Notes under the pieces: generated by a model
Seen by the model: the letters and a program-made list of their open reading frames with translations, nothing else
Database searches by the model: none
What the model was told of the DNA's origin: nothing
Assembly (NCBI RefSeq): GCF_902827225.1
Contig: NZ_LR792632.1
Coordinates: 119,030 to 143,029 of the forward strand
DNA: 24,000 bases
Direction of reading: 5' to 3'
Source of the DNA: Methanocaldococcus lauensis
GTDB taxonomy: Archaea > AGJL01 > Methanococci > Methanococcales > Methanocaldococcaceae
Part shown: positions 3,814 to 23,817 of the stretch, piece by piece
Numbering within the stretch: the stretch's first letter is position 1
Layout: each line of letters opens with the position of its first letter
Position numbers and translations under genes: made by a program

Positions 3814-4140
3814 GAAATAAAAATTAAACTCATAAAATTTTAAATTTTATTCATAAAAATTAATACTCAATCTAGGAATTTTTTCGACTTTAGTAATAAT
3901 TATTAACAAAGAAAATTTATTTTTTATTATTTTATAATAAAATTTTATAAGTTTTTAGTATTTTAATAATAATTTTTTAATATTTTTTGTTATTTTTTAT
4001 TACTTAGAGTGGAATTTTCCCGAGACTTGTTATTACTTTTGAAAAATATATAAATTAATAAATATATGAATTTAATTAAAAATAAAATTTCTATCTTTTA
4101 AACCCATAAGTAATTTTATTCATATCAATTATACCACTTT

Positions 4141-5276
4141 ATTTCCATCCCCTTAGGGGTCTGAGTTTTAAACCCATAGGGGGCTCTGCCCCCTATTAGT
4201 ATACCCCCGAATATTTGCCTTTTTGTTTAATTTTAGATATCCCGAACCATAGGGCTCCGCCCTATTGGGATACCCGGGATGCATTGCTTCGCTAACGCTC
4301 AGCAATGCATCTTAAATTAAAATCATTTTCCCTTAGGGGTCTGATTTTAGACTACACAGTTTCAGGACATATTGACAAAATAAAACTAACCTTTCCATCC
4401 CCTTAGGGGTCTGATTTTAGGCATTTAAACTTCATTTTCCCTCACCTTTGCCCTTGTTGTTTCCATCCCCTTAGGGGTCTGATTTTAGACCGTAACTAAC
4501 TTATCAAACCAAAACTTAAAGATTTATTGTTTCCATCCCCTTAGGGGTCTGATTTTAGACTTATGAAAACGGGATAACATATCTGAACAATACTTAGTTT
4601 CCATCCCCCTAGGGGTCTGATTTTAGACTGAGCATAATGTAAAAATCGAAGAAATTAAAAATAACTTAGAAGAATGTTTCCATCCCCTTAGGGGTCTGAT
4701 TTTAGACGCTGGATATGATATGGAGACGTTAGAAATTGTCGATGTTTCCATCCCCTTAGGGGTCTGATTTTAGACATATATAAATTCATTAATATATTCG
4801 GATAATAAAAAAAGTTTCCATCCCCTTAGGGGTCTGATTTTAGACAAGTTATAAAAGAAGTTAGAGAGATTAAAAAAGAGGTGTTTCCATCCCCTTAGAG
4901 GTCTGATTTTAGACTTTTATTTTACAATTTTTTTAGGGGGGCATTATGTTTTTGTTTCCATCCCCTTAGGGGTCTGATTTTAGACCAAGCAGGCGACACT
5001 TCAACGAGTTCGTGTAAACTTAGTTTCCATCCCCTTAGGGGTCTGATTTTAGACAGAAATAAGAAAAATCATAAGAGAAAGTATAAAAGAAGCATTAGAA
5101 GGTTTCCATCCCCTTAGGGGTCTGATTTTAGACGAAAGCATAAAGAGAATTCCAAAAGGAATTTGGGAATTTTTGTTTCCATCCCCTTAGGGGTCTGATT
5201 TTAGACATTTTTCTTTTTAGTTTCTACATATCCATATCTTTTTAGTTTCCATCCCCTTAGGGGTCTGATTTTAGAC
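4141..5276 (-). CRISPR. CRISPR array A: 13 conserved 32-nt repeats plus 3 decayed trailer repeats
   Basis: The repeat reads GTTTCCATCCCCTTAGGGGTCTGATTTTAGAC on the plus strand. Copies start at 4391, 4459, 4529, 4597, 4676, 4744, 4814, 4883, 4954, 5023, 5102, 5175 and 5245. The 12 spacers between them are unique and 36-47 nt long. Point variants occur in the repeats at 4391, 4597 and 4883. Decayed repeats lie at 4141-4173, about 4208-4239 and 4325-4352. Strand call: decay is at the low-coordinate end, and the reverse complement ends in ..GGAUGGAAAC, which resembles the AUUGAAAC-type 8-nt crRNA 5' handle. Confidence 0.95.
4174..4311. repeat. Two hairpin elements and one 10-bp-stem palindrome inside the decayed trailer of array A
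   Basis: 4174-4208 is CCATAGGGGGC-TCT-GCCCCCTATTAGTATACCCCC. 4238-4278 is TATCCCGAACCATAGGGC-TCC-GCCCTATTGGGATACCCGGG. 4278-4311 is GATGCATTGC-(TTCGCTAACGCTCA)-GCAATGCATC. Confidence 0.85.
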
Positions 5277-5640
5277 AGGGCATAATTTTTTGAGATTAAG
5301 GACTAAAATTACTTTATTATGCTTCTTTGTTGGGGGGTTATAGTTTGGAGGGTCAGTAACCCTTGTTATTTATATACCTCCGAACTTATATATAAACTTT
5401 TCTATTTTTATTTATTAGTTTAAAAATTCTTTAAATTTTTATTATTAACTTATTTATCGGGGAAAATTGAAGATAAAAATAAATTACTAAAATCTCCTAA
5501 AAATCTCAATAATTTAATAAAACCAAATACTCAAATTAATCAAAATAGAAGACCCTTCGAAATTTGATAAAATCTTTTAAAATTTAAAAATTTCAAATTA
5601 AATCCCTCCAAATCAAAAAATAAAAATTTTTAGCGAGGGA
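5277..5640 (-). promoter_or_regulatory. Leader of CRISPR array A with a candidate TATA box
   Basis: AT-rich non-coding DNA flanks the best-conserved repeat. On the minus strand TTTATATATA (complement of 5387-5396) lies about 110 nt from the first repeat. A degenerate member of the hairpin family sits at about 5332-5383 (GGAGGGT-CAGTA-ACCCTT..TATATACCTCCGAA). The outer boundary is uncertain. Confidence 0.55.
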
Positions 5641-5689
5641 AAATATCTAAATGGAACTGCTATTAAATCGAAGATGTGGTTTCTTTAAA

Positions 5690-5835
5690 CCCCGATTGCC
5701 AGCCGATGAACTTAGGAGGCTGGAAGGTTCTTCGCTACAATTTCTTCCAGTAGCGGAGAACCAGAACGGTCTGTCTCCGTTCAGCCTGGAAGTCCAATGA
5801 ACTTATGGCAGAGAGATTGGCATTCTCGATGAAAT
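5690..5835 (+). ncRNA. GC-rich structured RNA candidate of unknown family
   Basis: This is an isolated GC-rich island in AT-rich non-coding DNA. One hairpin pairs 5726-5738 (GGTTCTTCGCTAC) with 5750-5762 (GTAGCGGAGAACC) over 13 bp; it contains one pair that is U-G on the plus strand but A-C on the minus strand. A second hairpin pairs 5764-5769 with 5777-5782 (GAACGG/CCGTTC). CCAGCC at 5699-5704 pairs with GGCTGG at 5718-5723. The motif CCRATGAACTTAKGG is duplicated at 5703-5716 and 5794-5808. The strand call is weak. Confidence 0.4.
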
Positions 5836-5932
5836 TTCCATAGATATCGGTTTATATAAATTAAGTTGTTAAATGCTATAATATGCTATGGAAATGGAAA
5901 ACAGTCTCCGTTACTATTCGTTCTGTATATGT

Positions 5933-7591
5933 TTAGTATCTCAATACAGCTCCTTCATCAGCTGATGTTACAAGTTTAGCATATCTTGCCAAGTAACCTT
6001 TTTTAACTTTTGGTTCAGGTTTTTTCCATTTAGCTAATCTTTCTTTTATCTCATCTTTATCCAAATCTAAATCTAATTTTTTGTTTATCATATCTATTTT
6101 AATTATATCTCCATCTTTAACTATCGCTATTGGTCCTCCAGCCATAGCTTCTGGTGAAACATGCCCAATACAGGGCCCTCTACTACCTCCACTGAATCTA
6201 CCATCTGTAATTAATGCTACTGAATCATCTAAACCCATTCCACATATTGCTGAAGTTGGAGCTAACATTTCTCTCATCCCAGGCCCTCCTGCAGGACCTT
6301 CATATCTAATAACTACAACATCTCCTCTTTCTATCTCTCCATTTAATATTGCATCAACAGCCTCTTCCTCACTATCAAATACTCTTGCAGGCCCTTCATG
6401 TTTATACATCTTTGGATTTACAGCACCTATTTTAACCACTGCTCCATTTGGTGCCAAACTACCTTTTAATATCCTTAAACCAGCTGTTTCATGGACTGGA
6501 TTGTCAATTGGTCTTATAACATTATAATCAATATATTTAACTTCATTAATTATCTCTCCAAGGGTCTTTCCACTAACTGTTAGACAGTTTTTCCTTATTT
6601 TCTCTTCTAAAACCTTTAATACTGCAGGAATGCCTCCTGCTCTATGTAAATCAATCATAAAGTGTTCTCCACCAGGTCTTAAAGATGCAATATGTGGCAC
6701 TTCGTCAGACAACATATCAAAGTCATCCAACGTTATAAATTTTGGCTTTATTTCATTTGCTATTGCTGGGATATGTAAGGTTGTGTTTGTTGAACCTCCT
6801 AAAGCTAAATCAACTAATATTGCATTTTCAAATGCCTCTTTAGTTAATATCTTATCTGGAGTTATATTATTTCTAACTAAATCAACTATTCTCATCCCGC
6901 TTCTCTTAGCTATTCTTATCTTTTCTGCTGTTGTTGCATGAGCTGTTGCGCAATAAGGAAGAGACAAACCCATAGCTTCAGTTAAACAAGCCATTGTATT
7001 TGCTGTAAATAAACCCGCACAACTTCCAGCCCCTGGACAGGCAATATCTTCAATTTCTTTAAGTTCTTCCTCTGTAATTTTCCCAGCAGCACAAGCTCCA
7101 ACCCCTTCAAATACACTAATTAAATCATATTTTTTCCCTCTCAACTCTCCAGGAAACATTGGACCTCCAGTAACAACTATAAATGGTAATCCAGTTCTTA
7201 TAGCTCCCATTATCATTCCAGGAACTATTTTATCACAACTTGGTATTAAAACTAAGCCGTCAAATCCATGGGCTTTTGCCATACTCTCTACAGTGTCAGC
7301 AATAATCTCTCTTGAAGGTAAAGAATACTTCATCCCCTCATGACCCATAGCTATTCCATCACATATTGCCATTGTGTTGAATTCAAAGGCAGTTCCTCCA
7401 TTTGCATATATTCCTTTTTTTACAGCTTCAGCAATGTCTCTTAAATGTACATGTCCTGGAACTACTTCAGTAAAGCTATTAACAACTCCAATAAAAGGTT
7501 TTTCTAATTCTTCATCCGTGTATCCACAAGCCTTTAACAAACTTCTATTTGGAGCTCTTTTTAGCCCTTTTTTTACTCTATCACTTATCAT
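5933..7591 (-). CDS. ilvD: Dihydroxy-acid dehydratase
   Basis: Full-length IlvD/Edd family match by eye ([21 protein letters not shown].., CDKIVPGM, ..GHVSPEA..). The start is taken at the ATG preceded by GGTGGA. The track's earlier start is a GTG lying inside that Shine-Dalgarno box. Confidence 0.95.
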
Positions 7592-19568: not shown

Positions 19569-19805
19569 CCTTACAACTATTGCTTATTTTATACTCAAAC
19601 TCCTATATATAATTTTCTTTTTTTAGGTGAATTTTCTGACTGCCTATTTATCAAACCATTTATAATCTTAAAATTCCTTACGGAATTTTAAAACTTATTC
19701 GCTACGCTCATAAGAAGTAAGAAAGATTATGCAATAATTTTATAAATAAAATGCACAAATTGTAAAGAAAAAAATTTCAATAAAATGAAAATATTGTTTT
19801 TATAT
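19569..19805 (-). promoter_or_regulatory. Leader copy a (paralog of the leader at 21229-21410), carrying a 48-nt double-hairpin insertion
   Basis: It aligns by eye with 21229-21410 over most positions (..CAACTATTGCTTATTYTATAYTCAAACTCCTATATA.., ..TTTTCTGACTGCCT.., ..GTAAGAAAG.., ..TATAAATAAAATGCACAA..). The segment 19666-19713 is absent from copy b. Confidence 0.7.
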
Positions 19806-21661: not shown

Positions 21662-23056
21662 ATGCTACTATCTCATCCAAATTATCCTTTAAAAAGTCAT
21701 CTGATTAATACAAAAAATAGAGCATTGGAAAAATACAAACCTCCAAAATTAAAATATTTTGAAGGAGAAATAATAAGAGAAATTTTAAAAATCATAACAT
21801 TATCACACGATTTTGGAAAAGCAACAATTTACTTTCAAAAATACATTAGAGGAGAAAAAGTCAAAAATTCTTTAAAAAAATATTCTACAATTTCATTTTT
21901 ATTAACAAACTATGTAATTGAAGAGTTTCTAAAGAATTACAACATAAAAAATAACTATTATCAACTATTTTCTTTGTGTGTTAAAAATCACCACTCCTTT
22001 ATAAGCAATCCAATACACGACTTAGGTAGTGTAGAGGAAAATAAAGACTTACTAAAAGAGCAGTTTAACTCATTGGACATTGATTTTATAAACAATATTT
22101 TGAAAGAAAATAATTTACCAGTAATTGAAGATGACTTTTCTAATATCTTAGAAAAATTTTATAATTTAGAGGATATTTATGAAGATTTGTATGATGAAAA
22201 TAATGAGCTAAAATATGAGTTCTATTTACTCTACCTATATTTATTTTCGTTGTTAATATGTTCTGACAAAGAAGATGCAATATTTAAAGGTAGAATTGTA
22301 AAAAGCTATCCAACACTACCATATAGCATTGAAAATTATATCAAAAATCTCCCAAAGAAAAATGACATTGACTATCTAAGAACAAAAATGTTTTTTGAAA
22401 TAGATAAAAAGGTTGATGAAATTGATTTGAATCATAGAATTTACTCTTTGAATGCTCCAACTGGAATGGGAAAAACTTTAACTATCTTCAATTTTGCATT
22501 AAAATTGGCTAATAGAATCAAAAGAGAAAAAGGCATTAACATGAGAATAATTTATTGCCTACCATTTTTAAGTATCATAGACCAAAATTATGCTGTTTTA
22601 GAAAAAGTATTAGAAAAAACTTTAAAAAATCAAATAACATCTGATATTCTTTTAAAACATCACCACTTATCAGATATTTCTTATAAAATAGAGGAGGAAG
22701 AAGTAGATGTTGATGAATCTCTCCATTTAATAGAAACATGGAACTCAAAAATAATAACTACAACTTTTATGCAACTTTTTTATAGTATATTTTCTAACAA
22801 AAACAAAAATTTAAAAAAATTTTATGCATTAAGTAATTCAATAATTATCTTAGATGAGATACAGGCAATTCCTTATAAATATTGGCATGCGATAAATAAA
22901 ATCTTCAAATTTTTGGCAGAGGAATATAATATTTACTTTATATTATGCACAGCAACACTTCCAATGATTTTTGAAGATAATATAGAGCTCTTAGATAATA
23001 AAGAAGAATACTTCAACAAAATGAATAGAACAAAAAAGAGATTTATAATGCATTAA
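21662..23056 (+). CDS. cas3: Cas3 part 1: HD nuclease domain and helicase motifs I-III
   Basis: HD motif ..LSHDFGKAT.., also ..NHHSF.. and ..CSDKEDA... Helicase motif I NAPTGMGKT, motif II ILDEIQ, motif III CTATLP. GGTGATATT-ATG start. It ends 5 codons after an A_AAA_AAG heptamer. Confidence 0.85.
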   Translation: MLLSHPNYPLKSHLINTKNRALEKYKPPKLKYFEGEIIREILKIITLSHDFGKATIYFQKYIRGEKVKNSLKKYSTISFLLTNYVIEEFLKNYNIKNNYYQLFSLCVKNHHSFISNPIHDLGSVEENKDLLKEQFNSLDIDFINNILKENNLPVIEDDFSNILEKFYNLEDIYEDLYDENNELKYEFYLLYLYLFSLLICSDKEDAIFKGRIVKSYPTLPYSIENYIKNLPKKNDIDYLRTKMFFEIDKKVDEIDLNHRIYSLNAPTGMGKTLTIFNFALKLANRIKREKGINMRIIYCLPFLSIIDQNYAVLEKVLEKTLKNQITSDILLKHHHLSDISYKIEEEEVDVDESLHLIETWNSKIITTTFMQLFYSIFSNKNKNLKKFYALSNSIIILDEIQAIPYKYWHAINKIFKFLAEEYNIYFILCTATLPMIFEDNIELLDNKEEYFNKMNRTKKRFIMH

Positions 23057-23817
23057 AAGAAATGGATTTAGAGGGAGATTTTTACTATTTATCAACAAAC
23101 ATCTATCCAAAAGAGAGATTAAATAGGATTAAAGAAATAAACAGAAATAAGAATAGGAAGATTATTGTTTCAACTCAATTAATTGAGGCTGGAGTTGATA
23201 TAAGCGTTGATGTGATTTATAGAGATATTGCTCCTTTTGATGCTATAAATCAAACTGCTGGAAGGAGACATAATGAAGGTAGAAGGGGAATAGTAAATAT
23301 TGTTAAGTTAGTGGATGATAAAGGAAGGAAATATGCCTCTTACATTTATGAAAAGCATCTTATAACTAAGACAGAGGAATTGTTAAATAAGTATGATGTT
23401 ATTGATGAAAGAGAATTTTTAAAATTAAACATCAAATATTTCCAAAAATTGAGGAATTATAAGGACAAATCAAAAGAAATCTTAAAAATAATTGAGAACT
23501 TTAAATATGATGAAATTAATAATAAATTTAAGCTAATTGAAAATCCTCCATCTATTGACTTGTTTGTTTGTGTTGAAGATGAAGCAGAAAAGGTTTGGGG
23601 GGAATATAAGACAATAATGGAAATAAAAAATATTTATGAAAGAAGAAAAAAATTTTTAGAAATAAAAAAGAAGTTTTATGAGTATGTTATAAGTGTTCCA
23701 GAGTATAGTATAAAAGGAAAGAATATTTTATTTAACCATTTGGATAAAATTGATGAAAAATATTATGATAGAGAAACGGGGTTTAAGATTGTTGAAGATA
23801 ATACACTAATACTATAA
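23029..23817 (+). CDS. cas3: Cas3 part 2: helicase C-terminal half, in the -1 frame relative to part 1
   Basis: The frame is open from 23029, and the first ATG is at 23062. ..VSTQLIEAGVDISVDVIYRDIAP.. is motif V and ..NQTAGRRHNEGRRG.. is motif VI. Homology continues across the junction if the reading shifts -1 at 23032-23038. Confidence 0.8.
   Translation, partial: NKKEIYNALKEMDLEGDFYYLSTNIYPKERLNRIKEINRNKNRKIIVSTQLIEAGVDISVDVIYRDIAPFDAINQTAGRRHNEGRRGIVNIVKLVDDKGRKYASYIYEKHLITKTEELLNKYDVIDEREFLKLNIKYFQKLRNYKDKSKEILKIIENFKYDEINNKFKLIENPPSIDLFVCVEDEAEKVWGEYKTIMEIKNIYERRKKFLEIKKKFYEYVISVPEYSIKGKNILFNHLDKIDEKYYDRETGFKIVEDNTLIL

Follow-up and report, generated by a model that had tools for sequence, protein, structure and literature searches.

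The trailer end of array A and the block in its last slot

The window, i.e. the whole 24,000-nt stretch of DNA analysed here, belongs to the genome referred to below as G000 and contains two CRISPR loci with different repeat classes. Array A (class A) consists of 15 repeats when read on the plus strand. Because the reverse complement of its repeat ends with ATGGAAAC, which is the usual 8-nt handle, the crRNA sense probably corresponds to the minus strand; judged from this handle the leader probably lies at 5278-5650 and the left end of the array would be its trailer. Between the leader and the ilvD gene there is a GC-rich stretch without open reading frames (5650-5930), which is present at the same place in G005 (L082:140-330) and which has no match in Rfam at E-values up to 1. 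At the other end of the window, beside the class-B locus, a cas3-like reading frame is split in two (ORFs 21662-23056 and 23062-23817). The features discussed in the following are:

3990-4095, plus strand: AT-rich trailer flank, homologous to the flanks past the terminal repeat of several other class-A arrays
4096-4110, plus strand: decayed copy of the terminal-repeat/element junction, with the 13-mer TTTTAAACCCATA
4141-4173, plus strand: terminal CRISPR repeat, on the strand opposite to the likely crRNA
4174-4208, plus strand: hairpin 1 with its TATACCCCC tail (TATACC), an H1-type unit of the family; predicted hairpin
4209-4235, plus strand: linker of the composite element, containing the supposed repeat remnant
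4236-4277, plus strand: hairpin 2 with outer arms; predicted hairpin
4278-4311, plus strand: palindrome with an 11-bp stem and the 12-nt loop TCGCTAACGCTC; stem pairs covary
4312-4324, plus strand: AT-rich end of the element (TTAAATTAAAATC), found likewise after the palindrome of the non-CRISPR copies L019, L031 and L032
4325-4352, plus strand: penultimate repeat, decayed, with a 4-nt deletion near its plus-strand 5' end
4353-5277, minus strand: remainder of array A, with 13 more repeats and unique spacers
5278-5650, minus strand: leader of array A, approximately 370 nt, conserved among arrays
19694-19714, plus strand: small hairpin within the class-B locus (leader copy a), whose loop is of the palindrome type (TCGCTACGCTC)

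As the earlier note had described, the terminal and penultimate repeats are separated by 151 nt (4174-4324) instead of a spacer of the length typical for this array, 36-47 nt, and hairpin 1 begins right at the end of the terminal repeat, with position 4174 directly following 4173. The palindrome is perfect, as had also been noted, but its stem has 11 rather than 10 bp; the perfect stem is private to the copy in array A and the copies in the other arrays have one mismatch. The inner part of hairpin 2, from position 4247 on, is common to nine of ten arrays, and its orientation in array A is flipped relative to most other composites, which is unsurprising in a near-perfect palindrome. With respect to the two repeats that enclose the block, the terminal one is 33 nt long with one inserted G, ends with AAAC in place of AGAC and reaches 35 bits with the Rfam model CRISPR-DR39, i.e. 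under the gathering score. The deletion in the penultimate repeat takes part of the 3' handle region (crRNA sense), and the same 4-nt deletion is present in other arrays of G000 and in arrays of G013.

Outside the terminal repeat, the flank 3990-4095 is shared with the arrays at 609927, 1241392, 1272130 and 1346283 and with G013 arrays. A conserved AT-rich flank extending 250-300 nt past the terminal repeat is found at roughly half of the class-A arrays in this genome and at G013 arrays (L021-L029). We rejected the idea that the trailer flank is a degenerate second leader or the terminal repeat of a mobile cassette, since the flank-versus-leader score fell within the range of shuffled sequences. 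Between flank and terminal repeat a partial element start had been suggested at 4096-4110. The 13-mer TTTTAAACCCATA occurs nine times in the genome (0.29 expected) and eight of these sites are repeat/element junctions of arrays; the ninth, 4096-4108, is therefore a decayed second copy of the junction, in agreement with that suggestion.

All three hairpins of the block are predicted on both strands, with z = -4.6 on the minus and -5.7 on the plus strand relative to shuffled sequences; folding of the minus-strand transcript had been proposed as a check. In a minus-strand pre-crRNA the block would form three stable hairpins just ahead of the last repeat. Moreover, an alignment of 81 copies revealed many double changes in the stem of the palindrome (for example U-A in 66 and C-G in 11 copies; G-C in 60 and A-U in 14; C-G in 44 and U-A in 33). 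This covariation fits selection for a DNA or an RNA hairpin, or palindrome-templated repair, and it does not separate a mobile element from a part of an RNA. Searching 3900-5950 with the Rfam covariance models (E up to 1) returned matches to CRISPR-DR models alone, leaving the hairpins without a family. Likewise, in a scan for bacterial-type intrinsic terminators, none of the three hairpins was directly followed by a T-run on either strand, and the terminator pattern on the plus strand was fitted only by the CRISPR repeats themselves.

We also considered that the block might be a genuine spacer, and rejected this on the basis of its length (151 nt), its repetition in other arrays and its presence at non-CRISPR loci. 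It has no match in the phage and plasmid collections, and nothing therefore indicates that it came from a virus or plasmid. In BLAST searches with the 151 nt against the whole genome, 36 pieces were obtained. The block is present in full length with 98.7% identity in the trailer of the 440-kb array, and long parts of it align with non-CRISPR loci at 268 kb (block positions 1-117, 81% identity), 847 kb (5-140, 80%), 511 kb (1-117, 73%) and 1273 kb (1-122, 74%). The order hairpin 1, linker, hairpin 2 and palindrome recurs at the non-CRISPR loci L031, L033 and L003 in two other genomes, and at non-CRISPR loci in three genomes hairpins 1 and 2 are likewise joined by this linker, the string in array A having two substitutions relative to the linker elsewhere. 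The string that had been interpreted as a remnant of the 3' half of a repeat at 4226-4239 (it in fact occupies 4225-4238) belongs to this conserved linker and is also found at non-CRISPR loci, and that interpretation has to be abandoned. Judged from these alignments, the block is a single contiguous composite of hairpin 1, linker, hairpin 2, palindrome and AT-rich tail. Array A consequently does not hold a set of independent repeat-abutting insertions, contrary to what had been proposed; one contiguous fragment matching other genomic loci is the outcome that the earlier note had itself named as speaking against that proposal.

The module in other arrays and other genomes

There are ten class-A array loci in G000, and nine of them carry a trailer module in the same position and orientation, with ten modules in class-A arrays in all. 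The layout is terminal repeat, hairpin 2, palindrome, AT-rich tail and penultimate repeat with the 4-nt deletion, where hairpin 2 plus palindrome make up a core of approximately 78 nt; in two array trailers an H1-type hairpin replaces hairpin 2. The array at 1272130 is the sole class-A array lacking the module. Array A and the 440-kb array have 73 extra nt, corresponding to hairpin 1, the linker and the outer arm of hairpin 2, and this extension was otherwise found only in one G005 array. While the trailers at 123 kb and 440 kb are near-identical, their outer flanks are unrelated, as are their first spacers. The array at 1346283 has, besides its end module, a second and complete module in its middle, separating seven leader-side repeats from 12 canonical ones towards the trailer. 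This internal module is the variant seen at 885186, and the array has a spacer in common with the array at 1210240; the shared spacer and the internal module are evidence of recombination between arrays. Finally, the locus at 1241392 is reduced to two modules and two decayed repeats and is without a leader. The core is a trailer module of the whole cassette, and its regular placement points to inheritance and homogenisation together with the array, not to fresh hits.

Copies of the unit were also observed at other places around arrays. In three of nine G000 arrays (847.5 kb, 1209.8 kb and 1273.4 kb) a palindrome plus hairpin 2, inverted relative to the trailer copy, lies about 20 nt past the far end of the leader, as is also the case in G013 and G005 arrays (L081, L033), and short remnants of the element are present at other leaders. 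At 1209795-1210568 the array at 1210240 and its leader are bracketed by inverted copies of hairpin 2 plus palindrome, which are identical at 66 of 66 positions and represent a variant found nowhere else in G000. An invertible segment or a composite transposon would look similar; no flanking duplication was seen around the two copies. In addition, an orphan decayed class-A repeat is directly followed by a minimal hairpin unit at 793546-793598, with no array or leader nearby.

Among the relatives, the hairpin 2 plus palindrome unit is present in 13 of the 16 other genus genomes and also occurs in one further genus, where both genomes carry it. The class-A repeat/element junction is confined to G000, G013 (12 matches) and G005 of the 17 genus genomes. 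In the sister species, G013, at least nine arrays were inspected, and these follow the same plan including the 4-nt deletion and the long conserved outer flank. In G005, the array beside the ilvD ortholog carries the full composite (L030, L082; G005:C61), and its trailer flank matches the 588-kb array locus of G000 and G013. This mismatch of the flank reflects either recombination or rearrangement of arrays or a chimeric metagenome-type contig. The comparison of trailers between related genomes, which the earlier note had recommended for dating the insertions, thus reveals a common plan in G013 and G005 arrays, as expected for an inherited cap. An array beside the ortholog of the gene to the left of array A is absent in G004, G007 and G008, which has no bearing on the dating.

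For one orthologous pair, the 588-kb array of G000 and C31 of G013, the divergence of the different parts could be compared. The unique flank is identical at 251 of 258 positions (97%). The corresponding numbers are 112 of 128 aligned positions for the module (140 with gaps; 80-87%) and 308 of 365 for the leader (84%). Also, the arrays of each genome share that genome's own variant of the repeat and of the palindrome loop. With the module and the leader being more diverged than the unique flank, it follows that leader, repeat and cap evolve in concert or are exchanged as a unit.

Similar arrangements exist outside the three genomes with class-A junctions. In G028, which belongs to another genus, the cap is reduced and arrays end with a variant terminal repeat, an AT-rich hairpin, a near-identical palindrome and a decayed penultimate repeat. 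The M. jannaschii-like genome G010 has 25 matches to the family, none of which is a class-A junction, and at the one G010 array inspected there is no module; a pattern search in five genomes for a module splitting the M. jannaschii-type repeat gave nothing.

With respect to the class-B arrays, these end with a 24-nt truncated repeat that is directly followed by a hairpin unit. Such junctions were detected in G000 (seven), G005 (three) and G011 (one, at a long array whose last slot holds hairpin 1, hairpin 2 and palindrome), and class-B loci can have up to three elements in series with a truncated repeat ahead of each. All hairpins belong to one superfamily with the order CCATAG, G-run, loop, C-run, CTATTGG and TATACC. 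In this loose sense it is correct that the two CRISPR loci of the window share their hairpin families, as the earlier note had it, but no hairpin 2 plus palindrome unit was found at the class-B locus of the window. The recurrence of the palindrome loop in leader copy a of that locus, also pointed out before, was confirmed: the genome contains 13 TCGC..GCTC loops enclosed by stems of 5 bp or more, 12 of them in palindromes that adjoin hairpin 2 and the thirteenth in the insertion in leader copy a at 19699.

Dispersal and insertion of the element family

In G000 we counted approximately 49 hairpin units, of which 12 are in class-A arrays, nine in class-B arrays and four beyond leaders. About half of the units thus lie in CRISPR cassettes, which constitute only about 1.3% of the DNA in G000; this enrichment exceeds what neutral parking alone would give, with the reservation that copying of cassettes inflates the count.

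To characterise the insertions we compared the two flanks of 49 dispersed hairpin 2 plus palindrome copies, collected genus-wide, using mismatched flanks as controls. In 28 of the 49, direct duplications of the flanks scored above the 99th percentile of the controls. The target duplications vary in length between 30 and 74 nt; the left copy stops 0-4 nt short of the element's CCATAGG end and the right copy starts 0-22 nt past the palindrome. Two of the G000 insertions (208 kb and 1278 kb) have an empty counterpart site in G016 in which the target is present just once, which means that the duplication was made at insertion. Clearly, the element family has moved. The earlier suggestion of active spread rather than local duplication consequently holds for the dispersed family, given the empty sites, and probably does not hold in the sense of fresh hits in array A.

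Open reading frames reach to within 0-25 nt of most copies, and the ends of genes are duplicated at L005, L008 and the 208-kb locus. The orientation of the copies relative to the neighbouring genes is weakly biased (27:17 and 26:14), and with a bias of this size an orientation-dependent RNA role of the dispersed copies is unsupported. At L089 (657350-657750) a hairpin unit is located next to the 3' end of a tRNA-like sequence, the last bases of which are duplicated together with the flank on the other side of the unit. As to the inserting enzyme, the search for the Y1 transposase domain (PF01797) in G000 gave no match while the controls responded. Cas1-Cas2 was considered as well and dismissed, the variable length of the duplications being unlike the products of a ruler-type integrase; the genome has a single cas1, which adjoins the 609-kb array.

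Origin of the cap and comparison with known systems

The explanation that we favour, with a probability of about 0.68, is an old insertion of an MJRE-type element into the last repeat, which was subsequently inherited and homogenised with the array cassette. The cap is then most likely an inherited passenger, for which no function is required. Neither the Rfam, terminator and orientation analyses nor the distribution of the cap among the arrays gave a positive sign of one. The original insertion would have duplicated the last repeat, resulting in the order terminal repeat, element and penultimate repeat. As decayed repeats flank the element, the repeat-to-repeat recombination that removes ordinary spacers would be hindered and the element retained. 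Copying of arrays and recombination between them would then have taken the unit along and homogenised it together with leader and repeat, a step for which the shared spacers, the internal copy of the module and the concerted divergence provide part of the evidence. The 73 extra nt in array A and the 440-kb array may represent the full ancestral composite, lost elsewhere by deletion between two CCATAGGG strings, or a later addition.

Besides the enrichment of hairpin units in CRISPR cassettes, two points speak against this scenario. A duplication of repeat length at the last repeat would give the order repeat-element-repeat, but any slot in an array is flanked by repeats anyway, and the flanking repeats may be two pre-existing ones rather than a target duplication. 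In addition, a member of the family stands at the last repeat in class-A arrays, in class-B arrays and in arrays of another genus, such that a single insertion needs shared ancestry of the cassettes; without it, the last repeat must be a favoured place for insertion or retention.

An alternative that we consider doubtful is that the module is a selected part of the cassette. The hairpins together with the intact terminal repeat would in that case shape the 3' end of the pre-crRNA, having been co-opted from the family, and could perhaps, though this is no likelier, stop an exonuclease, aid termination or insulate the neighbouring gene. Its constant position and orientation in nine of ten arrays here and in G013 and G005 is what selection predicts, as are the nearly unchanged palindrome at the same place in the arrays of the other genus, the analogous class-B cap in three genomes, the compensatory changes in the palindrome stem and the strong minus-strand fold. 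The covariation is, however, equally expected of a mobile palindrome, and no T-run follows any of the three hairpins on either strand. The array at 1272130 manages without the module and another one has it in mid-array followed by 12 perfect repeats; G010 has the family with none at the one array inspected and no class-A junction match. Furthermore, at the orthologous locus the module is more diverged than the unique flank.

It appears less probable still that the family prefers the ends of CRISPR repeats as targets and that the caps are recurrent independent hits. Each such hit would duplicate a repeat and, in an equally improbable extension of the same idea, generate new repeat units without Cas1-Cas2. 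That in repeats of two classes the element starts exactly where the repeat ends agrees with such targeting, and the same applies to the class-B loci with serial elements each preceded by a truncated repeat, the different hairpin variants in the same slot of different arrays, the elements at the far end of leaders and target duplications of about the length of a repeat. Yet the modules have their tail in common, as well as the 4-nt deletion in the adjoining repeat, and several arrays also share the outer flank, which indicates inheritance and not convergence. Also, duplications between 30 and 74 nt are unlike those of a ruler-type integrase, and while the family occurs in 14 of the 17 genus genomes, counting G000, 14 of the 17 are without the class-A junction.

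A far-fetched third possibility is that the plus strand might encode a small RNA consisting of anti-repeat, hairpins and T-run, which would pair with the pre-crRNA repeats like a tracrRNA: the plus-strand order of conserved AT-rich flank, terminal repeat, hairpins and ATTTTT in most arrays would suit it, but half of the arrays do not have the flank, the elements are clearly repeats of a dispersed kind and the system is type I/III-like. To our knowledge, type I/III systems process crRNA with Cas6, and we know of no need for a tracrRNA-like RNA in them.

The passenger reading explains an anomalous, structured 151-nt "spacer" as a repeat element. The oldest end of the arrays is a conserved structured cap that is common to arrays, species and even genera. 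If it is a passenger, it would be a selfish repeat surviving where decayed repeats shield it against deletion. Were the cap to have a role, such as a contribution to the 3' end of the pre-crRNA or a boundary mark for the array, archaeal CRISPR loci would gain a new accessory component. Target duplications of 30-74 nt in turn point to an unusual mechanism of insertion. It is conceivable, though we would not expect it, that hairpin 2 plus palindrome is a working end-piece of the cassette in Methanococcales, or that the family homes to the last repeat and thereby makes repeat units. A dispersed palindromic repeat would then be mechanistically linked to CRISPR arrays of two repeat classes in two genera. 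Our literature searches retrieved no paper describing a mechanistic link between palindromic repeats and CRISPR arrays, and no description of repeat elements at CRISPR trailers or array ends in Methanocaldococcus.

Among the known systems, the closest described family is MJRE1-3, the palindromic repetitive elements of Methanocaldococcus jannaschii (Suyama, Lathe and Bork, FEBS Lett 2005; 579:5281; as cited in PMC2229807). The likeness lies in short GC-rich non-coding palindromic units with many diverged copies between genes and at gene ends. Diverged GC-rich palindromic copies are numerous here as well (about 49 units in G000, with the family in 13 of 16 other genomes), and copies are situated at or inside gene ends without destroying the gene. 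The assignment as MJRE-type is by analogy and rests on these shared properties and on the presence of the family in G010, not on consensus sequences. The description by Suyama, Lathe and Bork reportedly covers neither a link to the last CRISPR repeat nor target duplications of 30-74 nt.

The bacterial REP, BIME and REPIN sequences are similar in being modular, GC-rich extragenic hairpin repeats, which occur singly or as composites with flipped orientations and have compensatory stems. REPINs, however, depend on RAYT, a Y1 transposase, and G000 is without a Y1 domain; moreover, we know of no long target duplications for REPs. With MITEs, such as the Sulfolobus SM elements and the Correia elements, the family has in common that it is small, non-autonomous, dispersed and foldable with empty sites in relatives. 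It differs from classical MITEs in having no distinct terminal inverted repeats beyond the internal hairpins and no fixed short duplication (30-74 nt and variable instead), and no cognate transposase was found in G000. Finally, CRISPR trailer ends are often degenerate: their oldest unit lies between decayed repeats and is kept across arrays and strains, in contrast to the turnover of leader-proximal spacers. The trailers studied here conform to this picture except that the conserved unit is not an old spacer but a strongly structured copy of a dispersed repeat, 78-151 nt in length.
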